Positions 3,550 through 29,632 of a DNA stretch of 32,000 bases are shown one piece after another. Positions within the stretch are counted from its first letter, which is position 1, and the number at the start of each line of letters is the position of its first letter. The DNA is taken from positions 1,320,001 to 1,352,000 of the forward strand of contig NZ_CP034549.1 in NCBI RefSeq assembly GCF_003966335.1. The letters run 5' to 3'. Under the pieces are notes generated by a model. It searched no databases and was not told the DNA's origin. It saw only the letters and a program-made list of their open reading frames with translations. The DNA is from Nonlabens ponticola (GTDB lineage Bacteria; Bacteroidota; Bacteroidia; Flavobacteriales; Flavobacteriaceae). Made by a program: the position numbers and the translations under genes.

Positions 3550-4590
3550 ATGTACAAATCACTTGTCAGGCCGCTGCTGTTCCGTTTTGATCCAGAAGGC
3601 GTACACCATTTCTCATTCAAGGCTATTAAATTATTGAGCAAGGTGCCTGGTTTTAGCACGCTTTCGCGAAAGCGTTACAAGCTCCAGCATCCTGCATTAA
3701 AAAGAAATCTATTTGGGTTAGAGTTTGAAAATCCTGTAGGTCTGGCCGCAGGTTTTGATAAGGATGCCAAAGCATTTGCAGAGTTCTCCAATCTAGGTTT
3801 TGGATTTGTAGAAATAGGCACGCTCACGCCTAAACCTCAAGAAGGAAATCCGAAACAAAGGCTTTTCAGGCTTAAGGATGATGCGGCGATCGTCAATCGC
3901 ATGGGCTTTAATAATGGCGGCGTTGACGCTGCAGTTGAGCGATTGAAAAATAATAAAGCCAGCGAGGACCGTGTACTGATAGGCGGCAATATAGGTAAGA
4001 ACAAAACGACACCTAATGAGCAAGCTGTCGAGGATTACATTATTTGTTTTAATAAGCTCTTTAACCATGTGGACTATTTCACGGTCAATGTAAGCTCGCC
4101 CAACACACCAGGATTACGCGAACTGCAAGACCGCAAACCATTGACACATATCTTGCAGACACTGCAAGATTTGAATAATGCACGACCACAGCGCAAACCA
4201 ATTTTACTCAAAATCGCACCAGACCTGACTGACGAGCAATTGCTGGACATCATAGGAATCGTAGAAGACACTCAAATTGACGGTGTTATAGCAACCAATA
4301 CGACTATCGAGCGCAAGGAGCTTAAAAGCGATATCACCCTGCAAAAAGAAGCAGGTGGTTTGAGCGGCGCACCACTTACAAATCGTGCGACACAGGTCAT
4401 CAAATTTCTATATGAAAAAAGCCATGGAGCTTTCCCAATCATCGGCGTTGGCGGAATCATGACCGCTCAAGATGCCATTGATAAAATAAAAGCTGGCGCC
4501 AGCCTCGTACAACTATACACTGGTTTTGTCTATGAAGGACCTGCTTTGGTAAGAGATATCAATAAAGAGATTCTAAGACAAGGCTTGTAG
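3550..4590 (+). CDS. pyrD: Dihydroorotate dehydrogenase (quinone), class 2
   Basis: The ORF track starts at TTG 3532. The ATG at 3550 gives [23 protein letters not shown], which matches the canonical PyrD N-terminus. [18 protein letters not shown] and GVGGI motifs are present. Confidence 0.93.
3658..3675. repeat. Iterated palindrome copy (PAL), perfect 18 bp ACGCTTTCGCGAAAGCGT, inside pyrD
   Basis: Read directly from the sequence. It is translated in frame as T-L-S-R-K-R. Confidence 0.9.
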
Positions 4591-4600
4591 AATTTTGAGT

Positions 4601-4628
4601 TGTCATGCTGCACTCGATGCGGCATCGG
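4601..4628. repeat. Hairpin repeat family HP-A (TGTCATGCTG...) just after the pyrD stop
   Basis: TGTCATGCTGCACTCGATGCGGCATCGG. The arms ATGCTGCA (4605-4612) and TGCGGCAT (4618-4625) have one mismatch. It shares the 10-mer TGTCATGCTG with the copies at 11128 and 13558. Confidence 0.6.
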
Positions 4629-4701
4629 CTAGACTCTAATTCAAAATTTATTGAGGTGTCTGCTTAAGAATTATTTCAATGTAATACACTTGTAATCACC
4701 A

Positions 4702-5319: not shown

Positions 5320-5337
5320 TTAAAACTATCTAATTCC

Positions 5338-5949: not shown

Positions 5950-5970
5950 AAATCTATAATTTAATTTTTT

Positions 5971-7752: not shown

Positions 7753-7847
7753 AAAGTCCTTAATAAAACCAGCTGGCTGGCTATTTTAAATATGATTTGC
7801 CGAAATTTAAGGATTAAACATCCATTCCAGTAAAGTAAGACCAGTTT

Positions 7848-10055
7848 ATGAGCAAAACCATCATAGTTTCAAATCGATTGCCACTTCAATTATCTATTGA
7901 AAACGACCAGGTGAGTTCGCACCCCAGCGTTGGTGGACTGGCGACAGGTTTGAAATCGGTACACAGAGACAACAATGGCTTATGGATAGGTTGGACTGGA
8001 CTCACAAAGGAAGAGACGCCCGACCACCTCAAATCTGAAATACAGCAAGCAGTCACAAATCAACAGTGTGCTGCTGTGGAATTGACCCAGCGCGATATGG
8101 ATGGCTTTTACTATGGTTTTAGCAATCGTACTATTTGGCCGCTGTTCCATTATTTTATGGAATATGCAGAATTTGATGATGAAAATTGGGAAATCTATAA
8201 AAGCGTAAATCAGAAGTTTGCTCAGGTCGTGCTGGAAAATCTAGAAGATGGCGACACCGTTTGGGTACACGATTATCAATTGATGTTGCTGCCACAAATG
8301 ATCAAAGAGCAGCGACCCGACGTTTCCATTGGATTTTTCCTGCACATTCCGTTCCCATCCTACGAGGTTTTTAGGACCTTACCATGGCGTGAACAATTGC
8401 TCAATGGCCTGCTGGGTGCAGATTTGTTGGGCTTCCATACCTATGATTATGAGCGTCATTTCTTGAGTTCGGTAAGTAGGATTCTGGGGCATGAGGTAAG
8501 CTTCAATGAGATCACGTTCAAAGATCGTCTAATCAAGGTAGACAGCTTTCCCATGGGTATCGATTATGAGAAGTTTTCCGCTTCCGCGAAAGCGAACTAT
8601 CAACAAACTGATAAAACACAAAGCGAGCTACAACGTCGATTGGATCTTCATGCAACGGCCACGCCAGATGCCAAAATGATTCTTTCCATAGATCGTTTGG
8701 ATTACACAAAAGGGATCGCAAATAGGCTGCGTGCATTTGAACATTTTCTAGAGAAATATCCGCATTATTCTGAGAAAGTCAGACTAGTCATGCTAGCGGT
8801 ACCTAGCCGATCAAATGTGCCACAATATCAAGTGTTGAAGAAAGAAATTGACGAGTTGGTAGGACGCATCAATGGTAAATTTTCTACCGTGAGCTGGACG
8901 CCAGTCTGGTATTTCTATAGATCCATGCCTTTCGAGAATCTTATCGATCTCTATACATCATGCGATGTCGCGTTGATCACACCTATACGCGATGGAATGA
9001 ATCTGGTCGCCAAAGAATACGTCGCCACCAGAATCGACCGCACTGGCGTATTGATCCTGTCAGAAATGGCTGGTGCCGCCAAGGAAATGAACGAGGCACT
9101 ACTCATCAACCCAAACAACATTAATCTGATTGCGGATACCATCAAAGAAGCGCTAGAAATGCCCGTAGAAGAACAAAAGAAGCGTAATAAGTTCATGCAA
9201 AGCCGCTTGAAACGTTACAATGTGGAAAAATGGGCGAGTGATTTCATGGTCAAACTAGACGCAGTAAAAGGCAATCAAACCGTAGTCAAGGCAAAGCATA
9301 TCAATGAGAAAAGGCAAACGGTAATTCTCGAGCAATTTCAAAAAGCCAATAAGCGCATATTCTTCCTTGATTATGATGGCACATTGCGAGGTTTTGTCAA
9401 TAATCCAGGCGATGCAAAACCTGATGTAGCATTGCTGGAAATGATCAAAAAGCTGCAAGCACCTGACCAAAACGAAGTGGTGATTATTAGCGGTCGCGAC
9501 AGCGTGACGCTAGGCGAGTGGTTTCAGGACGTGCCTGTCACGCTAATTTCTGAGCATGGTGTGTTGAAAAAAACATACGGGCAGGATTGGGAACTTACCG
9601 AAACTATGAACAATGATTGGGTACCTACCATCCAGCCTGTATTGCAAACCTATGTAGACCGTACACCAGGAACTTTTATTGAAGAAAAAAACTACAGTAT
9701 TGCCTGGCATTACCGCAAAGCAGATCCACAATTAGGTGAGCAGCGAGCCAATGAGCTATCAAACGTGATACGGGAATTAACCAGCAATCATGGGTTGAGC
9801 GTGCTGTCTGGGAACAAGGTCATTGAGATCAAGAGTAGCAATGTCCACAAGGGTAAGGCAGCTAACAATCATATCCTGAACAAGAACTATAACTTTATAT
9901 TCTGCATAGGCGACGACTGGACAGACGAGTTCATGTTTCACGATCTACCAGAAACTGCCATCACAGTCAAGGTAGGACTTGCTAATACCGCAGCTCGCTA
10001 CTACGTTGATGATACAGATCAAGTCAGAGACATGTTGCAAATGTTTATTAAGTAA
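7848..10055 (+). CDS. otsA: Bifunctional trehalose-6-phosphate synthase (GT20) / trehalose-6-phosphate phosphatase (HAD) fusion
   Basis: 735 aa. The N-terminal IVSNRLP, HDYQLMLLP and GMNLVAKEY motifs are GT20 OtsA motifs. The C-terminal FFLDYDGTL and GDDWTDE are HAD OtsB motifs. Confidence 0.93.
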   Translation: MSKTIIVSNRLPLQLSIENDQVSSHPSVGGLATGLKSVHRDNNGLWIGWTGLTKEETPDHLKSEIQQAVTNQQCAAVELTQRDMDGFYYGFSNRTIWPLFHYFMEYAEFDDENWEIYKSVNQKFAQVVLENLEDGDTVWVHDYQLMLLPQMIKEQRPDVSIGFFLHIPFPSYEVFRTLPWREQLLNGLLGADLLGFHTYDYERHFLSSVSRILGHEVSFNEITFKDRLIKVDSFPMGIDYEKFSASAKANYQQTDKTQSELQRRLDLHATATPDAKMILSIDRLDYTKGIANRLRAFEHFLEKYPHYSEKVRLVMLAVPSRSNVPQYQVLKKEIDELVGRINGKFSTVSWTPVWYFYRSMPFENLIDLYTSCDVALITPIRDGMNLVAKEYVATRIDRTGVLILSEMAGAAKEMNEALLINPNNINLIADTIKEALEMPVEEQKKRNKFMQSRLKRYNVEKWASDFMVKLDAVKGNQTVVKAKHINEKRQTVILEQFQKANKRIFFLDYDGTLRGFVNNPGDAKPDVALLEMIKKLQAPDQNEVVIISGRDSVTLGEWFQDVPVTLISEHGVLKKTYGQDWELTETMNNDWVPTIQPVLQTYVDRTPGTFIEEKNYSIAWHYRKADPQLGEQRANELSNVIRELTSNHGLSVLSGNKVIEIKSSNVHKGKAANNHILNKNYNFIFCIGDDWTDEFMFHDLPETAITVKVGLANTAARYYVDDTDQVRDMLQMFIK
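8579..8594. repeat. PAL copy, CGCTTCCGCGAAAGCG (1 mismatch), inside the otsA-otsB fusion gene
   Basis: Read directly from the sequence. It is translated as A-S-A-K-A. Confidence 0.75.
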
Positions 10056-10230: not shown

Positions 10231-11094
10231 ATGGAACGAGTCAAAATAATCGAGTGCCCGCGTGACGCCATGCAAGGAATCAAGGAAATGATTCCTACCG
10301 CTACCAAGGTACAGTACATACAATCACTACTGCGATGCGGATTTGACACCATCGATTTTGGCAGTTTTGTATCGCCGCGAGCCATTCCTCAAATGGTGGA
10401 TACTGCCCAAGTTTTGGCTCAATTAGATCTTTCAAAAACGGATTCTAAACTACTCGCAATCGTTGCCAATCTGCGCGGTGCGCAGGCAGCCTGCGAGCAT
10501 CCAGAGATTGATTATTTGGGTTATCCGTTTTCCATAAGCGAGAACTTCCAGATGCGTAACACGCACAAAACCATTGCGCAATCTGTAGAGCTGCTTCAAG
10601 AGATTTTGGATCTCGCTTTCGCGAAAGGGAAAAAAGTAGTCGTTTATATATCGATGGGATTTGGTAATCCATACGGCGATCCATGGAATGTTGAGATCGT
10701 AGGCGAGTGGACGCAGCAATTAAGCGCCATGGGCGTGGAGATCTTGTCACTGTCTGATACGGTAGGAACATCAGATCCTGAATCTATTGAATACCTGTTT
10801 TCTAACCTGATTCCTGCTTATCCAGCTATCGAATTTGGTGCACACTTGCATACCACGCCAACAAAATGGCACGAAAAAGTGGATGCCGCCTACAAAGCTG
10901 GTTGCCGCAGATTTGATGGTGCAATTCAAGGTTTTGGCGGTTGCCCTATGGCCAAAGATGAACTCACCGGCAACATGCCTACCGAGAAAATGGTAAGTTA
11001 TTTCAATCAAGCAAAAGCCGATTCAGGCATCAAAATGACCTCATTTGAAAGCAGCTATAATGAGGCGAGTACTATTTTTGGGAGGTATCATTGA
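10231..11094 (+). CDS. Hydroxymethylglutaryl-CoA lyase
   Basis: 287 aa. The N-terminus MERVKIIECPRDAMQG and the internal SLSDTVG and GAHLH motifs fit the HMGL-like TIM-barrel family. Confidence 0.9.
   Translation: MERVKIIECPRDAMQGIKEMIPTATKVQYIQSLLRCGFDTIDFGSFVSPRAIPQMVDTAQVLAQLDLSKTDSKLLAIVANLRGAQAACEHPEIDYLGYPFSISENFQMRNTHKTIAQSVELLQEILDLAFAKGKKVVVYISMGFGNPYGDPWNVEIVGEWTQQLSAMGVEILSLSDTVGTSDPESIEYLFSNLIPAYPAIEFGAHLHTTPTKWHEKVDAAYKAGCRRFDGAIQGFGGCPMAKDELTGNMPTEKMVSYFNQAKADSGIKMTSFESSYNEASTIFGRYH
10614..10629. repeat. PAL copy, CGCTTTCGCGAAAGGG (1 mismatch), inside the HMG-CoA lyase gene
   Basis: Read directly from the sequence. It is translated as A-F-A-K-G. Confidence 0.75.
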
Positions 11095-11139: not shown

Positions 11140-11140
11140 T

Positions 11141-12244
11141 TCTATGACAATGACAAGCTATTTTTATAAATAGTTTGGTTTTTGATCAGTGCGTAGATGA
11201 TGTGAATGATTTTGTTCCTGACGGCATTTAATACACTCATCTTATTTTTTCCTTCTGCAATTTTTCTCTGGTAATAGTACTTGAGGTCACATTCGAGTCT
11301 CACGGCTCTCATGGCGGCCATGTGCAACAAGGTCTTCATGGACTTATCTGCCATGTGGGACACCCTATTTCTAGATTTGAGTGATATTCCCGATTGATAG
11401 TTGAAGGGAACCACGCCAGCACTGCAGGCAAGTTTCCTGGGATCGGTGTAGGTGTTGAAGCCTTCGGTCTTGATGACGATAGCCGTCGAGAGCACCGTTC
11501 CCACACCTGGCACACTGCGTACCAGTTCTATCTGTTCCCTTATGGTTTGATCCATGTCTATCAACTCTTCCAAGATGGCTTCAAGATCCTTTATCTGTTG
11601 GCTTACCAGCTTTAGGCTCTTGTTGAACATATTGACAAGTCTGCGCTTGAGCCTTGGATCCTTGATCAGTTTCAGGTCTCTTTGCTGCTGGAGCAGCCTG
11701 GCGCGTGTCTTTATCTTCGATCTTCTTTCAGTCATCACGTACTTCATCTCCATGATCGTTTCACTGCACGGTTTCCACGGATCGAGTTCCTTATGATTCT
11801 TCTCGACAAAATTGGCGATGCGCTCTGCATCGACCTTATCATTCTTTCCTCTGACAAGTCCCAGGCTTTTCTTTAAATGGAAGGGATATATCACAAAGGT
11901 CTTTAGCTCCAGCGTCCGCAGGACCTCATAGAGATTGTAATTGTACCTTCCAGTGTTCTCCATACCCAGCAGTATGTTCCTGTCCTTACTCACCAATGGT
12001 ACAAGGAACTTCTTGATGGCACCCACCTTATTCTTGATCACGAAGAACTGATCACATCGTTGCTCTCTGATACAGATATCCAATGTCTGGGCACTGATAT
12101 CTATACCGATAATTAAATCTGTCATACCTTTATTTTTGATTAATAATGAAGAGAGGAGATCATCAATAATTCAATTCCTTAATAATGGGCTCGTATCCCT
12201 AATTTCTATTTGAAAATTTGATGATTAGATAGGCTCAGGTCTGT
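11141..12244 (-). mobile_element. IS110-family insertion sequence; boundaries are approximate and inferred from the split hairpin
   Basis: It contains a single DEDD-type transposase ORF. I found no terminal inverted repeats, as expected for IS110. It is flanked by the two complementary half-arms of a hairpin repeat. Confidence 0.55.
11142..12125 (-). CDS. IS110 family transposase (DEDD recombinase)
   Basis: 327 aa. The N-terminus is MTDLIIGIDISAQTLDICI (RuvC-like DEDD). The C-terminal SVPGVGTVLSTAIV and NKMSVLNAVRNKIIHIIYALI are typical of the IS110/IS116/IS902 transposase domains. Confidence 0.92.
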   Translation of the reverse strand: MTDLIIGIDISAQTLDICIREQRCDQFFVIKNKVGAIKKFLVPLVSKDRNILLGMENTGRYNYNLYEVLRTLELKTFVIYPFHLKKSLGLVRGKNDKVDAERIANFVEKNHKELDPWKPCSETIMEMKYVMTERRSKIKTRARLLQQQRDLKLIKDPRLKRRLVNMFNKSLKLVSQQIKDLEAILEELIDMDQTIREQIELVRSVPGVGTVLSTAIVIKTEGFNTYTDPRKLACSAGVVPFNYQSGISLKSRNRVSHMADKSMKTLLHMAAMRAVRLECDLKYYYQRKIAEGKNKMSVLNAVRNKIIHIIYALIKNQTIYKNSLSLS

Positions 12245-12252: not shown

Positions 12253-12479
12253 ATTGATTGATCGATCAAGAACTTATTATAGTGTACCTGAACCTATCCT
12301 CTCTTTTTCTATTGAAAATAATACATGCAAGTCTAAAGGAACTGGTTTCAGCATCTTACGTGGTCACTTTACTTACAAATCATTGATACTGCAATACTAC
12401 GAACAGATCACATTGTTAAATCCTTTGCACATCAAACTAACAAGTGTTAGTTTCGTTAGGAAATAACGACTCAATATTT

Positions 12480-13617: not shown

Positions 13618-13633
13618 CGCTTTCGCGAAAGCG
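13618..13633. repeat. PAL copy, perfect 16 bp CGCTTTCGCGAAAGCG, intergenic between paaE and paaA
   Basis: Read directly from the sequence. Confidence 0.9.
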
Positions 13634-15109: not shown

Positions 15110-15463
15110 ATGGACGAAAAGAAATATGATCTTGAAGATCGATTGATCAAGTTCGCTGTAGAAATTATCAATTTATCTAGAAAGGCAGATTGGAATGACT
15201 ACGCTTCAAGGTATTATCAGCAACAGCTGATACGTTCCTCTGGATCTGTCGCTTTAAATTTTGGAGAATTTTTAGGTGCCAGTAGTCAAAAAGACAAACT
15301 CAATAAACTGAATATTGCTCACAAAGAGATTAAAGAATGTAGGAACAATATACTTATTCAAATTGGTGCAGAACTCAATATAGTGTCAGAACTCAAAATA
15401 CTATCGCGAGAATCACTTGAATTAATCAAAATACTGAGAGCTATTATAAAATCTAAATCTTAA
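15110..15463 (+). CDS. Four-helix-bundle protein (23S rRNA intervening-sequence protein / Avd-like family)
   Basis: 117 aa. YDLEDRLIKFAVEIINL ... QLIRSSGSVALNFGE ... HKEIKECRN fits the PF05635-type four-helix-bundle pattern. It is AT-rich: 16 G+C in the 60 nt at 15301-15360 by hand count. Confidence 0.85.
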   Translation: MDEKKYDLEDRLIKFAVEIINLSRKADWNDYASRYYQQQLIRSSGSVALNFGEFLGASSQKDKLNKLNIAHKEIKECRNNILIQIGAELNIVSELKILSRESLELIKILRAIIKSKS

Positions 15464-16830: not shown

Positions 16831-16846
16831 CGCTATCGCGAAAGCG
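16831..16846. repeat. PAL copy, CGCTATCGCGAAAGCG (1 mismatch), intergenic between paaD and paaG
   Basis: Read directly from the sequence. The flanks TTT...AAA extend the symmetry. Confidence 0.75.
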
Positions 16847-16914: not shown

Positions 16915-17694
16915 ATGTCCCAATCCATACAATTAGAAATCAATAACGGCATTGCCCAGATTACTTTAAATCGTCCGCAAGTTTTCAATTCTTTCAATAA
17001 AGAAATGGCTTTTGCCATGCAAGATGCTTTGGATCGCTGCAAGCAAGGTGACGTAAGAGCAGTGATGATTACTGGTAGTGGTAAGGCATTTTGCGCGGGT
17101 CAGGATATTCAGGAAATAACAGATCCAGAAAAGAATCCAGGTTTTGAAGCCATACTTGATGATCATTACAATCCTATAGTTACGCGCATACGTGATTTAG
17201 AAAAGCCTGTTGTTGCTGCCGTGAACGGTGTCGCAGCCGGTGCTGGTGCTAATATTGCACTGTGTTGTGACGTCGTCATTGCTACCAAGAGCGCTGCATT
17301 TATTCAAGCATTTTCAAAAATAGGATTGATTCCAGATAGTGCGGGTACGTACTTTTTGCCTAAGTTGATAGGTTTTGGAAAGGCTAGTGCGGTTATGATG
17401 CTAGCAGACAAAATCACTGCAACCGAGGCTGATCAAATGGGAATGATCTATAAAGCAGTAGAGGATGATGAGTTTTCAGCTTTCGCGAAAGCGGTAACCG
17501 AAAAGCTATCAAAACTACCTACCATCGCTCTCGCAAACACAAAGAAAGCCTTGAACGAGAGCATGTCAAACACAGTAGAACAGCAACTCGCTCTAGAATC
17601 TAAGCTACAAATCCAAAGCGCCAACACCGCAGATTATGAAGAAGGCGTCGCTGCATTTATGGAAAAAAGAAAGCCAGAATTCAAAGGCCAATAA
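16915..17694 (+). CDS. paaG: Crotonase-family 2-(1,2-epoxy-1,2-dihydrophenyl)acetyl-CoA isomerase PaaG
   Basis: The ORF is open from TTG 16891, and ATG 16915 (MSQSIQLEINNG) is the likely start. LNRPQVFNSFNKEM and GKAFCAGQD resemble PaaG. Confidence 0.85.
   Translation: MSQSIQLEINNGIAQITLNRPQVFNSFNKEMAFAMQDALDRCKQGDVRAVMITGSGKAFCAGQDIQEITDPEKNPGFEAILDDHYNPIVTRIRDLEKPVVAAVNGVAAGAGANIALCCDVVIATKSAAFIQAFSKIGLIPDSAGTYFLPKLIGFGKASAVMMLADKITATEADQMGMIYKAVEDDEFSAFAKAVTEKLSKLPTIALANTKKALNESMSNTVEQQLALESKLQIQSANTADYEEGVAAFMEKRKPEFKGQ
17479..17492. repeat. PAL copy, perfect 14 bp GCTTTCGCGAAAGC, inside paaG
   Basis: Read directly from the sequence. It is translated as A-F-A-K-A. Confidence 0.85.
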
Positions 17695-18722: not shown

Positions 18723-19943
18723 ATGAATATTCAAAAAGTAGGGATAGTTGGCGCAGGAACTATGGGTAGTGGTATCGCTCAAGTTGCCGCTACTGCAGGA
18801 TGTAGCGTCACACTCTTTGATGTGAATAGCGATCAACTAGTCACAGCGCAAGATTCTTTAGAAAGGATCCTGGCAAGATTGGTAGAGAAGAATCGGATTG
18901 ATAATGAAGAGAGAGATAGGATATTGGGTAATATCGCTTTCAAGGAGCTAGGCGACGCAGAAGTTCATGCCGAGCGCAGTCGAGGTACGAAAGCGGAATC
19001 AGAACTATCATCCTGCGATTTAATTATTGAGGCAATCGTTGAGAATCTTGAGGTCAAAAAGAAGGTTTTTCAGAATCTGGAGAAAATCGTGAACGACGAC
19101 TGCGTTATTGCTACCAACACATCTAGCCTAAGCGTGACCAGTATTGCAGCCTCGCTAGAAAAGCCAGAACGTTGTATTGGAATCCATTTTTTTAATCCAG
19201 CACCTTTGATGAAACTGGTTGAAGTAGTGCCAGCCGTGCAAACCAATACTGAGATCACTGAAGGAATAGTTGAAACTATCAAAAGTTGGGGTAAAACGGT
19301 TGCCGTCGCAAAGGATACACCAGGCTTTATCGTCAATAGAGTGGCACGACCATTCTATAGTGAATCGCTGCGCATGCTGGAAGAAGGCATGGCAGATGTA
19401 CCTACCATAGATAAACTGGTGCGTCAAATGGGATTCCGTATGGGGCCTTTTGAGCTGACAGATTTCATAGGCCATGATGTGAATTATGCTGTGACAGAAT
19501 CTGTTTTTGCGGCCTTTTACTATGATCCACGCTACAAGCCGTCATTAACTCAAAAGCGATTGGTTGAAGCTGGATGGTTAGGTAAAAAAAGGGGCAAAGG
19601 TTTTTACACCTATCAAGATGGAAAGAAACAGGAGCTAGATCACAATCCAGAAATGATCACTGGCGCAGATGGAAAAGCGATGCAAGACCGCTTGCTGGTC
19701 ATGCTCATCAATGAAGCTGCGGATGCACTTTATCTAAATATCGCCAGTGCTGAAGATCTAGACAATGCAATGACCAAAGGAGTAAATTACCCTAAAGGGC
19801 TACTCGCCTGGGCAGATGAGAAAGGACTGGACTGGTGTGTAAATCAGCTGGATGCTTTGTATGATTTCTATAGAGAAGACCGCTATCGCTGCTCGCCATT
19901 ATTGCGCAGCAAGGCAAGTAAGAAGGAAAGGTTTTTCGCATGA
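18723..19943 (+). CDS. paaH: 3-hydroxyacyl-CoA dehydrogenase PaaH, carrying an apparent 15-aa in-frame insertion
   Basis: 406 aa. It has the N-terminal Rossmann motif VGIVGAGTMGSGIAQ, IEAIVENLEVKKKVF and the HFFNPAP motif. The segment KELGDAEVHAERSRG looks inserted; see the finding. Confidence 0.9.
   Translation: MNIQKVGIVGAGTMGSGIAQVAATAGCSVTLFDVNSDQLVTAQDSLERILARLVEKNRIDNEERDRILGNIAFKELGDAEVHAERSRGTKAESELSSCDLIIEAIVENLEVKKKVFQNLEKIVNDDCVIATNTSSLSVTSIAASLEKPERCIGIHFFNPAPLMKLVEVVPAVQTNTEITEGIVETIKSWGKTVAVAKDTPGFIVNRVARPFYSESLRMLEEGMADVPTIDKLVRQMGFRMGPFELTDFIGHDVNYAVTESVFAAFYYDPRYKPSLTQKRLVEAGWLGKKRGKGFYTYQDGKKQELDHNPEMITGADGKAMQDRLLVMLINEAADALYLNIASAEDLDNAMTKGVNYPKGLLAWADEKGLDWCVNQLDALYDFYREDRYRCSPLLRSKASKKERFFA
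18934..18997. repeat. Split PAL copy: left half TCGCTTTC (18934-18941) and right half GAAAGCGGA (18989-18997), separated by 47 nt
   Basis: Read directly from the sequence. Removing 45 nt restores ATC GCT TTC (G/A)CG AAA GCG GAA, which reads I-A-F-A/T-K-A-E. Confidence 0.6.
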
Positions 19944-20348: not shown

Positions 20349-20368
20349 TTCGCTTTCGCGAAAGCGAA
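20349..20368. repeat. PAL copy, perfect 20 bp TTCGCTTTCGCGAAAGCGAA, directly after the paaI stop
   Basis: Read directly from the sequence. This is the longest perfect copy in the window. Confidence 0.92.
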
Positions 20369-20398
20369 CATGGTTTAGAATGATTGTTAAGTAGAAAT

Positions 20399-21528: not shown

Positions 21529-22740
21529 ATGAACACATACATAATAGACGGAATAAGAACACCGGTAGGTAACTACAAAGGAACCTTGTCAACGATACGG
21601 CCAGACGATCTTGCAGCTTATGTCATCAAAACCTTGGTTGAGAAACATCCAGAAATACCGCAAGAAGATTATGCAGATGTCATTATGGGCTGTGCTAATC
21701 AGGCAGGTGAGGACAATCGCAATGTCGCGCGCATGGCTGGATTACTGGCTGGATTACCTTACAGTGTTCCTGGAGAAACGGTAAATAGATTGTGCAGTTC
21801 TGGATTAAGCAGCATCGTACATGCGCACAGAGCAATTCAAACTGGCGATGGCGATATTTTTATATCAGGTGGTGTGGAAAACATGACTCGTGGACCGTTG
21901 GTAATTGCAAAACCAAGCAGTGCGTTTGGCACGGACGCTAAAATGTATGACAGCAGTTTTGGCTGGAGATTTGTCAACCAGAAAATGGCAGATATGTACG
22001 GCGTGGATGGCATGGGAAATACCGCCGAGAATCTGGTCGCCAAGTTTGATATATCACGTGAAGATCAAGATGCTTTTGCAGCATGGTCACAGCAAAAGGC
22101 GGCAGCCGCAAGAGAATCTGGTAGATTGGCTAAGGAAATTATCTCGGTTGAAATACCACAACGTAAAAAAGATCCTATCATATTCAAGGATGATGAGTTT
22201 ATCAAACCTACTACCACTAAAGAGGTATTGGCAAAACTGCGACCAGCCTTCAAAAAAGAAGGTGGATCTGTCACCGCAGGTAATTCCAGTGGACTTAACG
22301 ATGGTGCAGCAGCCACCATTGTTGCGAGTCAAGATGCGGTAGATAAATATGGTTTGAAACCACTCGCACGTATTTTAAGTAGTGCAGCAGTAGGCGTGGA
22401 GCCTAGAATTATGGGAATAGGTCCTGTAGAGGCCAGCAATCGTGCTCTCAAAAAAGCAGGTCTGACTATGGCTGACATGGATGTAATTGAACTTAACGAA
22501 GCTTTCGCTTCTCAAGCGCTGGCTTGTATTAGAGAATGGGGCTTGAAAGATGACGATCCTAGAATCAATCCTAATGGCGGTTCTATAGCGATAGGGCATC
22601 CACTAGGTATGACAGGAACAAGACTCGCTTTTACCGCAGCGTTGGAGTTATCGCTTTCGCGAAAGCGGTATGCTCTCATCACCATGTGTGTAGGCGTAGG
22701 TCAAGGTTACGCCATGGTTATAGAAAATGTTGCTCTTTAA
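21529..22740 (+). CDS. paaJ: 3-oxoadipyl-CoA / 3-oxo-5,6-dehydrosuberyl-CoA thiolase
   Basis: 403 aa. It has the thiolase motifs VNRLCSSGL (active-site Cys), NEAFASQ, GHPLGMTG and CVGVGQG. Confidence 0.92.
   Translation: MNTYIIDGIRTPVGNYKGTLSTIRPDDLAAYVIKTLVEKHPEIPQEDYADVIMGCANQAGEDNRNVARMAGLLAGLPYSVPGETVNRLCSSGLSSIVHAHRAIQTGDGDIFISGGVENMTRGPLVIAKPSSAFGTDAKMYDSSFGWRFVNQKMADMYGVDGMGNTAENLVAKFDISREDQDAFAAWSQQKAAAARESGRLAKEIISVEIPQRKKDPIIFKDDEFIKPTTTKEVLAKLRPAFKKEGGSVTAGNSSGLNDGAAATIVASQDAVDKYGLKPLARILSSAAVGVEPRIMGIGPVEASNRALKKAGLTMADMDVIELNEAFASQALACIREWGLKDDDPRINPNGGSIAIGHPLGMTGTRLAFTAALELSLSRKRYALITMCVGVGQGYAMVIENVAL
22652..22667. repeat. PAL copy, perfect 16 bp CGCTTTCGCGAAAGCG, inside paaJ
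   Basis: Read directly from the sequence. It is translated as L-S-R-K-R in a loop that is variable among thiolases. Confidence 0.9.
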
Positions 22741-22838
22741 TATATTCTCATTCTTGATAAGCAAATAAATTGCTTAATTCCTACAAATCTACATTCTGGT
22801 ATAGAGCTTGTTGCGTATTACCTTTTAGAATATAGCTT

Positions 22839-25148
22839 ATGAAATATCTGTACTTACTGTTTTTATCATTTGGAGTTTTTAGTGCTGCTCAAGAAAATGT
22901 TGCAAAATCTATTAATACGACTGCGTATAAAGATCATTACAATGTTCCTCACGAGGCTCTTTATCTTCATTTGAATAAGAATGTTGTGGTGCCCAGCGAG
23001 CCCATAGGCTATAGTATTTATGTAAAAGATATCGCACAATCAGGCATAGATACCTTGGCTACTAATGTTTATGTCACTTTAGAGAATGACCAAGGAAAAC
23101 GAGTAGTTAGTGACCTCAATCTTTTATCGAAAGGATATGGTCATGGTCTAATAACAACTGATTCACTGGAGACCGGAAACTATATACTTAAGGCTTTTAC
23201 TGGCTGGATGCGCAATTTTGACAATCCGCATTTTTTCCAAGAAACAATTACCATAGTAGATCCTACTGAAAATATAACACGTGCCAATGCGGCTAGAGAA
23301 TTCGACATTCAATTGATGCCAGAAGGTGGTCATTTGGTAGAAGGTATCCCGAATACGGTAGGTGTTGTCATTAAGGATCAATATGGCCAAGGTGTTGCGA
23401 CAAAAGGTATTGTGGTAAATGATGATAACACGATAACCACCTTTAATACTGACTCAAGAGGATTAGGTCGTTTCACTCTTTTTCCACAAGGCGTCAAACA
23501 ATATATATGTAAAGTCAATTTGAATGACAAATCATTGACTGAAGTTCTACCTATGGCAAAAAACGAAGGGTACAACCTGCAATTAATACCGTGGAGTAGC
23601 GATATCACCATTCAACTCAATAGAAGAAATAGGAATGATAAAGACGTCAAGGTCATACTTCATAAAGGGCAAAAGTTGGTAGTTTATGACCCAGTTTTTG
23701 TAGATGATAAAGCTGTTTATAGTCTCAAAAAATCTACTTTACCTACTGGTGTTAATAAGGTTACCGTCATTGAAAATGGTAAGGAGGTTCTTTCTCGTAC
23801 ACTTTTTAACGACTATGATTTTGAGGTATTAGATGTTTCAAATCCTAGTGTAATTGTAGAACAAGATAGTTTATCACTGTATGTATCAGCCGTAAAAAAT
23901 TCGGGTGATTTAGTATCAAGTATTTCTGTGCTACCAGCTGGTAGTGTTGCCTATAACAACGACGCGTCAATTGTATCTTCTTTTATTCTACGTCCTTATA
24001 TTAAAGGCTCTGTACAGGATCCTAATTATTACTTTGAAAATATGGATCGACGCAAATTATACGATCTTGATAATTTGTTGATTACACAAGGATGGAGCGC
24101 CTACAAATGGGAAGATTATAAAGAAGTCAATGTAAAGTATCCCTATGAAGAAGGCATAGGTGCTAGAATTGCAGTTAATGGCAAAGTACAGGAGAGCTAT
24201 TTTGTGTTACCATTGAAAAATTCATCCAGCTCATTGTTTACTAAGGACGAGTTGGATGAGTCTAGAACATTTATGCTTAAGGGCTTAACGCCTACAAATA
24301 AGGAGCAACTCAAGGTCTCTGCTACAAAAAAGAATCAACGCCCGGTAAAACCATCGCTTGCTCCTACATTTTATCCTAGTATTGTTCCTGATTTTGATAA
24401 TTCTTACGATTATATATTGAGTAATGATTTACCACAAATTGAAAGTGGACAAATGATCTCATCATTTTCGTCTGGGACCACTCAATTGAGTGAAGTATTA
24501 GTAAAAGCCAAAGCAAGAGAAGAGAGGCGTCAAAAGCTGGTTGATGAATCTTTCAATCAGGTTTATGTATTCAACGAGGCCGATAGAAGAAATACATTAA
24601 ATCTCGCATTATGGCTCAACCAGCACGGATTTATTGCAAATCAAGATGGTGGATTTCTCACGGTCTCTAATAGAAATCCACAAAGCATTAATGCCTCTGT
24701 TGAGCCGCTGTTTGTAGTAGATGATGTCATTTATAACGATCCTTCAATTCTAGGTAATCTAGATATGAATACGGTAGATTATATTGAAATTAACCGACAA
24801 GGAAGTGGGTATGGTTTTAGAGGCTCTGGTGGCGTTATTATTATTAATACAGATCCTACATTATCCTCAGTAAATTCCACAAATGCCAACGTAAGTTCCT
24901 ATAAATTTCCAATCACCTTTAAAAAGCCGCAAGAATATTTTAAACCAGCGTACCTAAGTACACAAACAGATGTTTTTCAAAAGCTAGGTGCAATACATTG
25001 GGAACCACGAGTCAATTTAACAGGTGAATCAATCGAGAAAATAAAGTTCACATCACAATACAGAGGTGATGCCTTGATGATTGTAGAAGGAATGAATGCT
25101 GATGGCGCGCTTGTGAGCCGGATAGTTAAGTTCAATATTCCTGAGTAA
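22839..25148 (+). CDS. Large secreted/outer-membrane-associated protein with a C-terminal TonB-receptor-plug-like segment
   Basis: 769 aa with a signal peptide (MKYLYLLFLSFGVFSAAQ). The N-terminal region looks like an MG2/carboxypeptidase-regulatory-like beta sandwich (weak call). The C-terminal LFVVDDVIYND...VDYIEINRQGSGYGFRGSGGVIIINT resembles a plug domain. Confidence 0.55.
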   Translation: MKYLYLLFLSFGVFSAAQENVAKSINTTAYKDHYNVPHEALYLHLNKNVVVPSEPIGYSIYVKDIAQSGIDTLATNVYVTLENDQGKRVVSDLNLLSKGYGHGLITTDSLETGNYILKAFTGWMRNFDNPHFFQETITIVDPTENITRANAAREFDIQLMPEGGHLVEGIPNTVGVVIKDQYGQGVATKGIVVNDDNTITTFNTDSRGLGRFTLFPQGVKQYICKVNLNDKSLTEVLPMAKNEGYNLQLIPWSSDITIQLNRRNRNDKDVKVILHKGQKLVVYDPVFVDDKAVYSLKKSTLPTGVNKVTVIENGKEVLSRTLFNDYDFEVLDVSNPSVIVEQDSLSLYVSAVKNSGDLVSSISVLPAGSVAYNNDASIVSSFILRPYIKGSVQDPNYYFENMDRRKLYDLDNLLITQGWSAYKWEDYKEVNVKYPYEEGIGARIAVNGKVQESYFVLPLKNSSSSLFTKDELDESRTFMLKGLTPTNKEQLKVSATKKNQRPVKPSLAPTFYPSIVPDFDNSYDYILSNDLPQIESGQMISSFSSGTTQLSEVLVKAKAREERRQKLVDESFNQVYVFNEADRRNTLNLALWLNQHGFIANQDGGFLTVSNRNPQSINASVEPLFVVDDVIYNDPSILGNLDMNTVDYIEINRQGSGYGFRGSGGVIIINTDPTLSSVNSTNANVSSYKFPITFKKPQEYFKPAYLSTQTDVFQKLGAIHWEPRVNLTGESIEKIKFTSQYRGDALMIVEGMNADGALVSRIVKFNIPE

Positions 25149-25215
25149 GGCTTTATGTTTTCAAGGTTGTTCCCTTATCTAGGAAATGGTTAAAACCCAT
25201 GATATCATTTAATTA

Positions 25216-25231
25216 CGCTTTCGCGAAAGCG
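25216..25231. repeat. PAL copy, perfect 16 bp CGCTTTCGCGAAAGCG, intergenic between convergent genes
   Basis: Read directly from the sequence. Confidence 0.9.
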
Positions 25232-25245
25232 GGACGTTTATAAAT

Positions 25246-26040
25246 TTATATCAACTTCTCAATAAAGAAGAACGAGCTACCATTGTCTCGTAAATAAGTA
25301 GGTCCAGTACTGGCGCCAAAAGCTCTGTTGGTCCTGATGGTTATGATTTGTCCAGCAGTCACTTCAATAGTTTGGGTAAAAGAGATAGAGCCATTTTCCG
25401 TTGCAGTGCTGGTAGCATTAAGCTCTGTACTGCGGTATAGTGCTCCTTTACCTGTAACAGCACTACCATCGGCAGCACTGAGGTATAATCGTGCCTCGAT
25501 CTCTGATTTATTAGTGGTTGCTGTGAGCGATATACCGACTGATATTTGATATCTACCAGATTCCAAAACTTGCAGCTCGCCACTGTTTAGGCGGTTGTAT
25601 AACATCGCATTATCGTTAAATGTAGCTACAGATGCAAGCAAAGGAACAATAGCCCTGCCAGAATTGGGATTAAGATTGATGCTTGATGTTCCTGACGTTT
25701 CGTTCTCATATTTAGCCATTTGACCTACATAGGCGTTGAGCCGCTGCCATCTGTTACCATCCCAATAGTAATAACCTTTTCCTAGATCTGCATTGGTATT
25801 GAATACAAGGGTACCTTCCTCAATACTCAATGGTAAGGGTGCTGTGTTGTTTAAATCAGTAAGCGCTGTACTGGGTAATAGTACACCACTAGAATTGCTG
25901 GGATCATCCACATGCAACATAGTACCATTAGCAGGCGAGTCTATGCCAATGGCTACTTGAGCGAGAGCGGTATTACAAGATGCCATCAGCAATAGACCAA
26001 GGCATTTTGAAATAATCGATATTTTTAGCGCAGTATTCAT
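25246..26040 (-). CDS. Secreted protein, paralog B; the C-terminal domain is C1q/TNF-like by pattern (tentative)
   Basis: 264 aa with a signal peptide. The N-terminal AQVAIGIDSPANGTMLHVDD...LPS...L.DLN...PLP...EGTLVFNTN...GYYYWDGNRWQRL is shared with the upstream paralog. The C-terminal GRYQISVGISL ... VTAGQIITIR ... SSFFFIEKL suggests a jelly roll. Confidence 0.55.
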   Translation of the reverse strand: MNTALKISIISKCLGLLLMASCNTALAQVAIGIDSPANGTMLHVDDPSNSSGVLLPSTALTDLNNTAPLPLSIEEGTLVFNTNADLGKGYYYWDGNRWQRLNAYVGQMAKYENETSGTSSINLNPNSGRAIVPLLASVATFNDNAMLYNRLNSGELQVLESGRYQISVGISLTATTNKSEIEARLYLSAADGSAVTGKGALYRSTELNATSTATENGSISFTQTIEVTAGQIITIRTNRAFGASTGPTYLRDNGSSFFFIEKLI

Positions 26041-26811: not shown

Positions 26812-27059
26812 CCCTATATGATACCACGAAGTTAGGACGATAACTGTTTATAAAATGCTAATACAGTCAGTTTGTCCTATAAATCGGTTATTAATGAATA
26901 ATCGACGATTATCTGTCGTCAAAATACGCTGTTAATCTATAATTATCTATTAATAAGGCTATTACATCCTTGTGATTCAAGAATAATATATCCTATTTTT
27001 TATATGGCGATAATAGCTGGTTTGGCTAACGCCTGTTAGTTAAAGCAGGACCTTTTCAG

Positions 27060-27067
27060 TAAATTTG
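27060..27067 (+). promoter_or_regulatory. Candidate Bacteroidota -7 promoter box (TAnnTTTG) upstream of paaZ
   Basis: TAAATTTG lies at 27060-27067, ending 21 nt before the paaZ ATG. I found no convincing -33 TTG at the expected spacing. Confidence 0.3.
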
Positions 27068-27088
27068 AAGTAAATCAATATCAATCTC

Positions 27089-29632
27089 ATGAGCGTATTA
27101 GAGTCATATATTAATGGTCGCTGGACCGCCGGAAATGAAGACAGCGCAAAACCAATGTACGATGCCATCACGGGCGAGGTCATCGGACTTACAAGCACAA
27201 ATGACTTGGATATACCATCGGTTTTACAATACGGTCGCGATCACGGCAAGGTATTGCGCGATATGACGTTCCAGCAGCGTGGCAATATGATCAAGAAATT
27301 AGCTCTGTACCTTGAAAAACGCAAGAAGCAGTTTTATGAGGTAAGCTACAAGACCGGCGCCACTCGTGCCGACTCTTGGGTAGATATAGAAGGTGGTTTC
27401 GGAAATCTATTTGCCAACGCCAGCCTGCGCAAGCTCTTTCCAGACCAGAGCTACGCGGTAGAAGGCGATCCTATTGATTTGTCTCGTGGTGGTCGCTTTA
27501 TGGCGCATCACATTTTGGTACCCAAAAAAGGTGTTGCAGTACATATCAACGCTTTCAACTTCCCAGTTTGGGGTATGCTGGAAAAATGTGCCATTAACTG
27601 GATGGCAGGTATGCCAGCAGTGGTTTTGCCAGCGCCACAAACAGCATTCTTGACTGAGGCTGTAGCAAGAGAGATCATCAATTCTGGCATTTTGCCAGAA
27701 GGCGCTCTGCAATTACTCAGTGGTTTGACTACAAATATCCTGGATACCGTAAATTCTACTGATGTGGTCACATTTACTGGTAGCGCCGCAACAGGACGCA
27801 AGCTCAAGGCGCATCCACGATTGTTGGAAGAATCGGTGCCGTTTACTATGGAAGCAGATTCATTAAACTCTTCTGTGTTGGGACCAGATGCTGTTCCTGG
27901 CACGGCCGAGTTTGATATTTTTATCAAGGAAGTACGCAAAGAAATGACTTCTAAAGCTGGTCAAAAATGTACCGCCATACGCCGTATCATGGTGCCAGAA
28001 AACCTGATGGAAGATGTTCAAATTGCGTTAGGCAAGCAGCTATCTCAAACAGTCATTGGCGATCCATTATTGCGTGAGACGCGCATGGGCGCTTTGATCA
28101 ATAACGATCAGTGTGACACATTGAAAGAACAAATAAAGAAAATTTCAAAAACCGCCAAGATTGTTTACGGCGATCTCGATGAAGTTGAAATTCAGGGCGA
28201 TCGCGCGCAGAATGGCGCTTTCATGTCACCTATTTTGATGCGCGAGGACCAGCCGTTCAAGAACACGATGGTTCATGAGGTAGAATGTTTTGGCCCAGTC
28301 AGCACTTTGATGCCGTATAAGAATCTGGACGAGGCGATAGAGCTGGCTCATATGGGTAAAGGCTCGTTGGTGAGCAGCGTGGTTACTAGTGATGACGCTT
28401 TCGCGAAAGTGTACACCATAAACGCCGCATCTTCACACGGTAGAATTTTGACACTCAATAAAGAATCTGCACCACAATCCACGGGACATGGTTCACCATT
28501 ACCATTATTGGTTCATGGAGGTCCAGGACGCGCCGGTGGCGGCGAGGAAATGGGTGGTTTGCGTGGTATTAAGCATTACATGCAACGTTGTGCAGTTCAA
28601 GGAAGTCCAACATCACTGACCGAAATTACAGGGATTTATCAGCCAAATGGCGCTTATAAAGAAGCCGAAAAGCATCCGTTTGCATATCATTATGAGGACA
28701 TCAAACCCGGAATGTCGCTAGAAACTCATAAACGCACGCTGACAGATACCGATATCCAGAATTTTGCCAACCTCACATGGGATCATTTCTATGCGCATAC
28801 TGATATCACAAGTCTTGAAGGCAGTATTTTCAAAAAGCGCACCGCACACGGTTACTTTATCATCAGCGCTGCGGCTGGACTTTTTGTGTATCCTAACAAA
28901 GGACCAGTAAGTGCCAACTACGGTCTGGAAGACATCAGATTCCTAAGACCGTTGTACCACAACGATACCATCTATGTGCGTTTGACTTGTAAGGAAAAAC
29001 GTGAGCGCGACGTGAGTGGTCGCGAGCATCCATCGGGAATCGTCAAATGGTATGTAGAAGTATTTGATGCAGAGCCTGTAGATTATGAAAACGGCAAGAC
29101 AGATGAAGAAGCTGATTCTCTCGTTGCCATTGCTACGATTTTGACGATGGTAGAAAAGAAACAGGATACTTTCAAAGAAATTACTGAAGATTATATCAAG
29201 TTCGCTTTCGCGAAATTGAACGCTGATTCAAAACCTCAATGGGGTTCTATGACTGCACAACATATGGTCGAGCATCTTGAAATGAGTTACCGTATCGCCA
29301 GCGGCGAGATTCAGGATTTTGAGGTAGCAACACCAGAAGAACATCTGGAAAAAGTAGCCGCTACTTTATGGAACTATAAAAAAATGCCACAAAACCACAA
29401 GATGCCACTCATGAAACAGGACGGCACTTTGGAAGACTTGAAATACGAAGACCTGGAAACGGCTAAAGAGAAGATGCTCGAAGCGAGACAGCAATACTTA
29501 AATTATTTCAAGCGTCATCCTAAGATCGTGACTAAGAATGCTGTTTTTGGGGAATTGAGTAAGTATGAGTGGTATTTACTCGAGAGGAAGCACTTGAATC
29601 ACCACTTTGAGCAGTTCCAAATTTCCGCATAG
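27089..29632 (+). CDS. paaZ: PaaZ-type bifunctional aldehyde dehydrogenase / MaoC-like hydratase, with an extra C-terminal DinB/DUF1569-like domain
   Basis: 847 aa. It has an ALDH domain (EADSLN, GQKCTAIRR) and a MaoC hotdog domain (about residues 540-690). It then has about 156 further aa with PQWGSMTAQHMVEHLE ... FGELSKYEWYLLERKHLNHHFEQF, a DUF1569-like pattern. Confidence 0.9.
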   Translation: MSVLESYINGRWTAGNEDSAKPMYDAITGEVIGLTSTNDLDIPSVLQYGRDHGKVLRDMTFQQRGNMIKKLALYLEKRKKQFYEVSYKTGATRADSWVDIEGGFGNLFANASLRKLFPDQSYAVEGDPIDLSRGGRFMAHHILVPKKGVAVHINAFNFPVWGMLEKCAINWMAGMPAVVLPAPQTAFLTEAVAREIINSGILPEGALQLLSGLTTNILDTVNSTDVVTFTGSAATGRKLKAHPRLLEESVPFTMEADSLNSSVLGPDAVPGTAEFDIFIKEVRKEMTSKAGQKCTAIRRIMVPENLMEDVQIALGKQLSQTVIGDPLLRETRMGALINNDQCDTLKEQIKKISKTAKIVYGDLDEVEIQGDRAQNGAFMSPILMREDQPFKNTMVHEVECFGPVSTLMPYKNLDEAIELAHMGKGSLVSSVVTSDDAFAKVYTINAASSHGRILTLNKESAPQSTGHGSPLPLLVHGGPGRAGGGEEMGGLRGIKHYMQRCAVQGSPTSLTEITGIYQPNGAYKEAEKHPFAYHYEDIKPGMSLETHKRTLTDTDIQNFANLTWDHFYAHTDITSLEGSIFKKRTAHGYFIISAAAGLFVYPNKGPVSANYGLEDIRFLRPLYHNDTIYVRLTCKEKRERDVSGREHPSGIVKWYVEVFDAEPVDYENGKTDEEADSLVAIATILTMVEKKQDTFKEITEDYIKFAFAKLNADSKPQWGSMTAQHMVEHLEMSYRIASGEIQDFEVATPEEHLEKVAATLWNYKKMPQNHKMPLMKQDGTLEDLKYEDLETAKEKMLEARQQYLNYFKRHPKIVTKNAVFGELSKYEWYLLERKHLNHHFEQFQISA
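28395..28412. repeat. PAL copy, ACGCTTTCGCGAAAGTGT (1 mismatch), inside paaZ
   Basis: Read directly from the sequence. It is translated as A-F-A-K-V. Confidence 0.75.
29201..29220. repeat. PAL copy, TTCGCTTTCGCGAAATTGAA (2 mismatches to the 20-bp form), inside the paaZ C-terminal extension
   Basis: Read directly from the sequence. It is translated as F-A-F-A-K-L and lies 13 codons into the extra domain. Confidence 0.65.

Follow-up and report, generated by a model that had tools for sequence, protein, structure and literature searches.

Hyper-abundant genomic words are rare, and those that are understood, the uptake signal sequences (USS) of Pasteurellaceae, the DNA uptake sequences (DUS) of Neisseriaceae, Chi and perhaps the cyanobacterial HIP1, show how a lineage recognises its own DNA, whether to take it up, to recombine it or to organise the chromosome. 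HIP1 (GCGATCGC) makes transformation more efficient, and recent work proposes it to be an uptake signal; it is also tied to orphan methylases, its transformation effect is methylation-dependent, and conservation and spacing data similar to ours were read by Xu et al. as pointing to a role of HIP1 in the nucleoid. Here we describe a longer palindrome, with the 14-mer GCTTTCGCGAAAGC as its core, in 32,000 nucleotides of DNA from the flavobacterium Nonlabens ponticola (contig NZ_CP034549.1, positions 1,320,001 to 1,352,000; this whole stretch is called the window) and follow it through the genera Nonlabens and Dokdonia. It very probably belongs to the HIP1/USS/DUS class of genomic words, with a copy number kept by selection or molecular drive. 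A long base-perfect palindrome at several hundred sites was not found described for Bacteroidota, and among the papers that could be searched none mentions, in such a setting, the 14-mer or the 10 bp at its centre, or connects Nonlabens or Dokdonia with such a palindrome.

The window contains 11 matches to GCTTTCGCGAAAGC at up to two mismatches (six perfect, four with one mismatch, one with two), where 0.19 are expected and the largest number in 100 dinucleotide-preserving shuffles was 2. By simple arithmetic on base composition the perfect 14-mer is expected about 7e-5 times per 32 kb, and the most repeated 10- and 12-mers of the window are, by a wide margin, sub-words of the palindrome. One further copy, in paaH, is split by a 47-nt insert. 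Annotation of open reading frames and Pfam domains places four copies in spacers (13619, 16832, 20352 and 25217) and seven in genes, namely pyrD, an otsA-otsB fusion, an HMGL-like gene, paaG, paaJ and, twice, paaZ; the genic copies are read as AFAKx or ASAKA five times and as LSRKR twice. An earlier reading made from the letters of this DNA alone (the sequence-only reading) had listed the same 11 sites, four of them intergenic, and its counts and coordinates proved correct, including the perfect 18 bp at 3658-3675 and the perfect 20 bp at 20349-20368. The PaaG and Lpd proteins of the window match N. ponticola proteins at 100% identity; an exact look-up of the PaaJ protein gave no match.

Beyond the window, we scanned one genome per species for exact occurrences of the 16-mer CGCTTTCGCGAAAGCG and obtained at least 120 tiles of 8 kb each. 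Among the matches listed, 107 of 120 tiles come from Dokdonia, Nonlabens or metagenome-assembled genomes (MAGs) of Flavobacteriaceae, and these ingroup tiles hold 73 copies beyond the selecting one in 767 kb; in the 13 listed tiles of other origin, amounting to 94 kb, there is a single extra copy. Syntenic paa loci of 20.8 kb each were fetched through PaaG homologues, that is, unselected for the motif. They carry eight perfect copies in N. marinus (L121), six in N. spongiae (L122) and seven each in Nonlabens sp. Asnod2-A12 (L123), a MAG (L166) and Dokdonia pacifica (L164), and none in Ulvibacter litoralis (L165), Rasiella (L167) or Patiriisocius (L168). At up to two mismatches there was still no match in the Rasiella and Patiriisocius loci, and only two two-mismatch matches, a chance-level number, in that of Ulvibacter. 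Seven metagenome loci picked for a different sequence gave 13 copies in 64 kb, or 0.20 per kb. The density in Nonlabens and Dokdonia is about 0.1-0.35 copies per kb, a figure extrapolated to genomes from about 1 Mb of partly motif-selected tiles and one syntenic locus, and it implies several hundred copies per 3-Mb genome. The palindrome is genome-wide and specific to the lineages Nonlabens and Dokdonia, and the alternative that the sequence-only reading had named, a motif confined to this locus, is ruled out by its occurrence across the two genera.

Orthologous genes with and without the motif indicate how copies come about. In an alignment of 120 PaaG homologues there is no gap at the motif site, and AFAKA is confined to one Nonlabens subclade, other Nonlabens having ETAQQ, ATAQK or EIAQQ and Dokdonia TEIEK. 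Codon alignments place AFAKA at PaaZ residue 436 in Nonlabens and Dokdonia against KIARE in Ulvibacter, and LSRKR in PaaJ against QEQGK; the PaaJ site, again ungapped, reads LTGKK in L123, EQKKK in Dokdonia and EQGKR in Ulvibacter. In PaaD the motif bearers have GCT TTC GCG AAA GCG where others have GCA TTT GCA and similar strings. One paaG carries the motif displaced by 3 codons from its usual place, which points to an independent gain. Four of the five coding sites examined (PaaG, PaaZ, PaaJ and PaaD) are ungapped; the fifth is a linker in PaaH, to which we return. Judged by these alignments, copies arise by point substitution at tolerant places, that is, in variable protein segments and spacers, and not by insertion; an insertional origin of the palindrome was rejected on the ungapped orthologues, the PaaH linker being ambiguous.

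Reading frames were counted for 186 perfect copies: AFAKA is the reading of 70, LSRKR of 32 and RFRES of 26, and the other 58 (31%) fall between genes, with genes called by a crude heuristic as open stretches of at least 100 codons; thus 128 of the 186 (about 69%) lie in long open frames, in all three frames. The claim that the third frame is never used holds in the window but fails in the clade, where RFRES accounts for 26 of 128 coding copies; that the window has none is due to sampling. That AFAKA or LSRKR is a motif of the protein could be argued from the two frames seen in the window. It can be set aside as refuted, since outgroup orthologues have unrelated residues at these sites, a single codon string (GCTTTCGCGAAA, the first 12 bases of GCTTTCGCGAAAGC) encodes 103 of the 111 AFAK tetrapeptides found in long open frames of about 1 Mb of ingroup DNA, the third frame is used in the clade and 31% of copies lie between genes. 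The same verdict applies to chance, as 0 of 100 shuffles reached the observed count. The sequence-only reading had proposed a DNA-level element of the HIP1 or USS kind, embedded in unrelated proteins with frames intact, and had considered that distant orthologues might keep AFAKA or LSRKR; the ungapped orthologues with unrelated residues bear out the former and dispose of the latter.

Less fortunate was its comparison with repetitive extragenic palindromic (REP) elements. The palindrome shares with REPs and with REPINs (REP doublets forming hairpins) that it is short, palindromic, high-copy and lineage-specific, and REP-type palindromes can be targets of IS110/IS1111-type elements. However, REPs and REPINs are extragenic, imperfect, 20-40 nt long, inserted and often paired, whereas the present copies are about 69% intragenic, base-perfect and made by substitution, with no change of length and no enrichment of isolated half-sites. 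No gene for a REP-associated tyrosine transposase (RAYT, IS200-like tnpA) was seen in the 32-kb window.

Existing copies are held base-perfect while neighbouring synonymous sites saturate. In 14 gene families from six ingroup genomes, 38 of 81 coding occurrences (47%) are base-perfect at the aligned position in another genome, compared with 2.0% of control 14-mers from the same genes, in which no more than 45% of third codon positions are identical. There are 234 perfect copies to 24 with one mismatch, or about 127 to 24 after removal of the selecting copies. At paaD, paaJ and the paaH linker presence is patchy across species, so there is turnover besides conservation.

The excess of perfect copies over one-mismatch copies might also come from a bias linked to methylation or repair, in which a methyltransferase, a mismatch-processing or a nicking enzyme reads the CGCG/TCGCGA centre in a longer context and perfects near-matches. 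The core does hold TCGCGA and two CpG steps, and the orphan methylases and methylation-dependent transformation effect of HIP1 offer a precedent. Nevertheless, we hold this explanation to be improbable: no known repair system reads 16-22 bp, the conservation at orthologous sites argues for maintenance and not for continual re-creation, and a phage that replicates in a Nonlabens host, described below, has no copy. The NruI-type hexamer TCGCGA, to which the sequence-only reading had drawn attention, was rejected as the driver; outside palindromes it is neither enriched nor avoided (19 observed, 23.6 expected).

The element is wider than its core. The 14-mer sits in a perfect palindrome of 16-22 bp with a consensus of roughly T-T-n-C-GCTTTCGCGAAAGC-G-n-A-A; about 90% of copies have C at position -1 and G at +14, which is partly an effect of tile selection, and the outer consensus is TTnC...GnAA. 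In the 5' flank (-20 to -3) C makes up only 7-11% and T 36-45%, and in the 3' flank (+3 to +20) G makes up 6.5-10% and A 39-45%. This bias is dyad-symmetric, extends about 20 bp per side, has decayed by about 40 bp, and is shared by intergenic copies and by those in any of the three coding frames. The highest T values are at -3, -4, -7, -10 and -13; hardly any C occurs at -4, -6, -10, -15 and -18, but C is tolerated at -8 and -2. A C-to-T mutational gradient would fit the intergenic composition, but the depletion is position-specific, which favours a recognition constraint. The depleted bases make up a fraction of 0.109 of the flanks where the motif is present and 0.181 where it is missing from the same aligned sites (Mann-Whitney P 1e-4, from sequences that are phylogenetically non-independent); the flanks thus co-vary with the motif and belong to the element. 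They differ between genera as dialects do, with [A/G/T]TAC-core-GTA in Dokdonia and TT[C/T]C-core in Nonlabens. Each half appears to be read on its own. As a functional unit outside palindromes the half-site was rejected, GCTTTCG occurring there 5 times against 4.7 expected, and so was a longer repeat or a miniature inverted-repeat transposable element (MITE) around the copies, the flanks being unique sequence.

A palindrome of this length also predicts an RNA hairpin, with a stem of 6-9 bp, a loop of 4 nt and a predicted folding energy of -7.8 to -10.6 kcal/mol, and a terminator, 3'-end stabiliser or processing signal could be imagined for the 31% of copies that are intergenic, many of them within 20 nt of a stop codon. 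We consider a role in transcripts most improbable. About 69% of copies are genic, in all frames and on both strands; on either strand the T-run comes upstream and the A-run downstream, opposite to the order in an intrinsic terminator; copies lie at widely varying distances from stop codons, many of them short, so that a fixed position after them was rejected; and the window gave no Rfam match. An extended hairpin was excluded as well, because beyond 16-18 bp mirrored flank positions pair no better than left and right flanks that were shuffled.

The main rival to our preferred explanation is a chromosome-organising dimer site, comparable to those of Noc, SlmA, MatP or a ParB relative and to the nucleoid proposal for HIP1, whose copies selection would keep so that the nucleoid is anchored at regular intervals. 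Speaking for it are the perfect dyad symmetry, the enrichment of whole sites only, the extended symmetric footprint and the absence of copies from a virulent phage. Known nucleoid sites (parS, the Noc-binding sites or NBS, the SlmA-binding sites or SBS, and matS) are likewise perfect palindromes of 12-16 bp read by dimers, some of them in genes. They differ from the present element in sequence and half-site spacing, and they are regional and number tens of copies, while here hundreds of base-perfect 16-mers are spread over the sampled contigs. In the parS/NBS consensus, a palindrome of 16 bp present in up to about 100 copies, 4 nt separate the TTTC and GAAA blocks; in our palindrome the corresponding blocks are 2 nt apart. 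A phage-like contig with copies inside its portal and terminase genes is also hard to fit with nucleoid anchoring. In the paa loci, copies tend to be spaced more evenly than under a uniform distribution (coefficient of variation 0.29-0.74, P 0.002-0.36, for orthologous loci that are not independent tests), and this spacing, together with the conservation at orthologous sites, which Xu et al. read likewise for HIP1, is in favour of the nucleoid. On balance we think such a role rather unlikely.

The split copy in paaH shows a different side of the palindrome. Its left half CGCTTTC (18934-18941) and right half GAAAGCG (18989-18997) enclose a mini-insert of 47 nt on the + strand (AAGGAGCTAGGCGACGCAGAAGTTCATGCCGAGCGCAGTCGAGGTAC, 18942-18988), which adds 15 in-frame codons (KELGDAEVHAERSRG) to PaaH. 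The split that the sequence-only reading had noticed was thus confirmed as GCTTTC + 47 nt + GAAAGC, which lengthens the gene by a net 45 nt, or 15 codons, and keeps the frame; among seven PaaH orthologues the insertion is found only in N. ponticola and is absent from the other six. Homologues of the mini-insert share a pattern in which AAGRAR is followed by 6-8 variable nt, GACGCAGAAGTTTATRCTGAGC, another 2-4 variable nt and AGTCGAAGTAC. A degenerate scan of metagenomes for it gave at least 120 matches, mostly in an unrelated high-GC gene, and 7 useful loci. Most of the matches L169-L288, those of high GC, are coincidental: there the pattern exactly fits a conserved gene-end segment, GACGTAGAAGTTCATGCCGAGC, in many high-GC soil and marine contigs.

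Eight homologous full-length inserts were found, one intergenic in Dokdonia pacifica (L088) and the others in the seven low-GC metagenome loci, all of which have intact palindromes too. All nine full-length mini-inserts are bracketed by CGCTTTC...GAAAGCG or near variants, at different loci and in both genera, and the dyad is the residence site of a specific small conserved element. Something therefore presumably cuts or recombines there at least occasionally. At L054, L044, L062 and L013 there are shorter or partial mini-inserts, which join the palindrome at varying points. The consensus of the mini-insert folds weakly, with one covarying pair, and no common neighbouring gene was found for the mini-inserts. 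Its 12-mer GAGCGCAGTCGA also stands in other short intergenic contexts, GTTCGAGCGCAGTCGAGAAC, at L121:6675 and in L026 (about 3017-3030), which suggests that the GAGCGCAGTCGA module is shared by a broader family of small repeats.

Like the Rickettsia palindromic elements (RPEs) and other in-frame MITEs, the mini-insert adds codons in frame to a conserved enzyme. It is much shorter than an RPE and bracketed by palindrome halves, and the palindrome itself adds no length; a MITE- or RPE-type gain of length was found for the 47-nt mini-insert of paaH only. One may still ask whether the palindrome is where the mini-insert lands or what it collapses to, or plays one of these parts for a palindrome-targeting element of IS110 type. 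The nine bracketed inserts point in this direction, though the four shorter or partial ones join elsewhere, and so does an IS110-family transposase gene in the window (DEDD_Tnp_IS110 and Transposase_20 domains, 11142-12125, - strand, between the HMGL-like and paaE-like reductase genes, with the right end of the element near 12410). Yet coding copies of the palindrome replace residues one for one at unchanged length, mini-inserts number a few per Mb against about 200 palindromes per Mb, and the IS110 element lacks flanking palindrome halves and has no other copy in the fetched loci, so that the IS110 link was dropped. A mobile element would explain the interruption of the dyad and not the conservation of hundreds of intact copies. 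The rare mini-insert cannot account for hundreds of intact, substitution-derived copies, and we regard a mobile origin as quite improbable. The idea that the palindrome is a target for insertion, voiced in the sequence-only reading, stands for paaH, where a small conserved element has truly entered the dyad. As a hot spot beside inserted genes it is not supported: those at 20384 and 22839 are common to other Nonlabens, which makes their adjacency to palindromes weak evidence.

The palindrome also occurs in phage DNA. The 16-mer is present in 40 IMG/VR stretches, and a 37-kb phage-like contig with genes for portal, terminase, major head, tail sheath and baseplate proteins has at least six copies, some inside the portal and terminase genes. 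In contrast, the cultured virulent Nonlabens phage P12024S (35.7 kb) has no match at up to two mismatches, and hence the motif is not acquired by every replicon in these cells. It accumulates in the chromosome and in probable resident prophages, the 37-kb contig being a putative prophage.

Ulvibacter and Rasiella, neighbouring genera without the palindrome, have a different word. In the 20.8-kb locus of Ulvibacter litoralis the non-palindromic CTTCGGAA(A) occurs 20 times where 1.4 are expected, on both strands and in several frames, and Rasiella has eight occurrences of CTTC[G/A]GAAA, a word in common with Ulvibacter. CTTCGGAA is absent from the Nonlabens and Dokdonia loci and may represent, within the family, another genomic word specific to a lineage. 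Rasiella further shows, in paa spacers, clusters of the repeat TTCG[A/T]TATTC recurring about every 21 nt (L167, 9352-9414, 10800-10870, 13857-13960 and 18727-18776). As a genome-wide word these TTCGATATTC repeats were rejected, being clustered and intergenic; they are probably operator sites of a local regulator, unrelated to the palindrome.

Compared with the described systems, the palindrome has most in common with HIP1 and with USS/DUS. HIP1 too is a perfect palindrome, hyper-abundant in genes and spacers with frames undisturbed, lineage-wide, conserved at orthologous sites beyond neutral expectation and inclined to regular spacing. It differs in sequence and phylum and in its length of 8 bp, against a core of 14-22 bp plus about 20 bp of biased flanks here. 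Density is lower here and the enrichment per copy far higher, about 1e5-fold by composition; a cognate methylase is known for HIP1 only, and the present dyad hosts a specific 47-nt insert. With USS and DUS the palindrome shares hundreds to thousands of copies in related genera, dialects, placement by substitution in tolerant protein segments and spacers, frame bias, an intergenic excess, a strong core with weaker extended flanks, and presence in some resident prophages.

The explanation that we favour overall is a self-DNA word of the HIP1/USS class read by a dimer, to which we give a probability of roughly 0.45. A homodimeric protein would bind the palindrome as a double-stranded site, touching about 45-50 bp; fragments bearing it would be taken up or integrated preferentially, and this bias would itself spread and preserve copies. 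As to function, we tentatively suggest as the likeliest, by analogy, that the palindrome may tag lineage DNA for uptake and/or recombination in natural transformation. We lean on USS/DUS here because intergenic enrichment, frame bias, placement in variable segments, turnover with conservation, and even spacing all parallel those systems, and because of the dialects, the other word in neighbouring genera, and the phage-like contig with copies set against the virulent phage without. HIP1, a palindrome as well, lends support through its effect on transformation, and Riemerella columbina, a relative from the same taxonomic class, prefers its own DNA in transformation. A still wider proposal, which we find doubtful, is a family-wide system of self-DNA uptake or recombination in marine Flavobacteriaceae with switched specificity, the palindrome in Nonlabens and Dokdonia and the asymmetric CTTCGGAAA in Ulvibacter and Rasiella, the dyad also serving as an entry point for a small in-frame insert.

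Several points weigh against a self-DNA word. USS and DUS are asymmetric 9-12-mers at about 1 per kb with a demonstrated uptake bias, whereas the palindrome is longer, symmetric, present at 0.1-0.35 per kb and not enriched as halves, in hosts that are not known to be competent. Neither Nonlabens nor Dokdonia is known to have a reader protein, a methylase or a competence phenotype, and no model gives the flank bias a mechanistic explanation. Even spacing and conservation fit a role in nucleoid architecture equally well. The genome-wide density is an extrapolation, and the unselected comparisons cover a single syntenic region. The PaaH linker has a 6-codon difference in length, which is ambiguous as total segment lengths are nearly equal. 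Finally, Dokdonia is no nearer to Nonlabens than motif-less genera are, either in five concatenated Paa proteins, where its identity is 0.77-0.79 to Ulvibacter, Rasiella and Patiriisocius and 0.70-0.73 to Nonlabens, or, less decisively, in the ranking of Lpd matches, where the next-best named matches are Robiginitalea and Costertonia. At the paa locus the motif bearers are thus not a clade, which calls for loss and replacement of the word or for transfer of its reader.

The individual copies of the window can be set beside those of the relatives. In pyrD the perfect 18-bp palindrome ACGCTTTCGCGAAAGCGT (3658-3675) encodes L-S-R-K-R at about residue 42 and is perfect at the same site in N. marinus (L121:1896). 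The otsA-otsB fusion gene has a one-mismatch copy, GCTTCCGCGAAAGC (8580-8593), read A-S-A-K-A, and the HMGL-like gene another, GCTTTCGCGAAAGG (10615-10628), read A-F-A-K-G; the latter variant is identical at the same site in N. marinus (L121:4200), so that copy is inherited. A perfect 16-bp palindrome (13618-13633) stands in the intergenic stretch that separates paaA from the paaE-like reductase gene, a spacer that also has copies at L121:6573 and L123:5540, with orthology taken from gene order and the spacers unaligned. In the paaD-paaG spacer the one-mismatch copy GCTATCGCGAAAGC (16832-16845) looks like a decayed copy; perfect copies stand directly after paaD at L121:9915 and L123:8783, positions likewise taken from gene order with no alignment. 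Within paaG there is a perfect 14-mer (17479-17492, A-F-A-K-A), and a few nucleotides past the paaI stop codon begins the perfect 20-bp palindrome TTCGCTTTCGCGAAAGCGAA (20349-20368), with copies in the same place at L121:13873 (one mismatch) and L122:13382. The thiolase gene paaJ carries a perfect 16-bp palindrome (22652-22667, L-S-R-K-R) that is perfect also in L121, L122 and L166, and another perfect 16-bp palindrome (25216-25231) separates the convergent genes 22839-25148 (+) and 25246-26040 (-). In paaZ the one-mismatch copy GCTTTCGCGAAAGT (28397-28410) at residue 436, read A-F-A-K-V, has perfect counterparts, on the same codons, in L123, L166 and Dokdonia L164. The two-mismatch copy GCTTTCGCGAAATT (29204-29217), at residue 705, has an identical variant at the same site at L166:20295; whether it belongs to the family is doubtful.

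One-mismatch copies are frequent in N. ponticola, with four per six perfect copies in the window, compared with 0-2 per 6-8 perfect copies in the relatives. At least three of them (10615, 16832 and 28397) match a relative's same variant or perfect copy, and at least two of the four have a perfect counterpart in another species (28397, aligned; 16832, by gene order). The excess may reflect relaxed maintenance in N. ponticola, in what is a small sample. It was also noticed that intergenic copies often lie at junctions of conserved paa genes with species-variable segments, as do 20352 and 25217 in the window, L121:13873 and 17978, L122:13382 and L123:17706; the variable segments encode unknown proteins of 370 and 769 aa, or contain PTL_trimer or IVP genes. 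This placement could mark recombination breakpoints or be merely a preference for spacers.

Two further kinds of small gene were seen around the paa cluster. Genes with a 23S_rRNA_IVP (four-helix-bundle) domain occupy differing intergenic positions in the window (15110-15463) and in L121, L122, L123, L166 and L167, with seven in N. spongiae, which suggests a mobile or frequently inserted family; no consistent link between IVP genes and palindromes was seen in the paa clusters compared. A small stand-alone gene with a GIY-YIG nuclease domain (29721-30044) directly follows paaZ; Nonlabens, Dokdonia and Ulvibacter all have it in this place, which excludes a recent insertion.

The Bacteroidota that carry the palindrome are abundant marine bacteria whose mechanisms of gene exchange are poorly known. 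The palindrome is a handle for pull-down, DNA affinity purification sequencing (DAP-seq) and transformation work; genetic tools for Nonlabens and Dokdonia could gain from it, as those for Synechococcus did from HIP1, and it marks the DNA of these lineages in metagenomes. AFAKA, LSRKR and RFRES, forced into many unrelated proteins, are a clear case of pressure at the DNA level on protein sequence. If true, a family-wide uptake or recombination system would be the first USS/DUS-like system in Bacteroidota.

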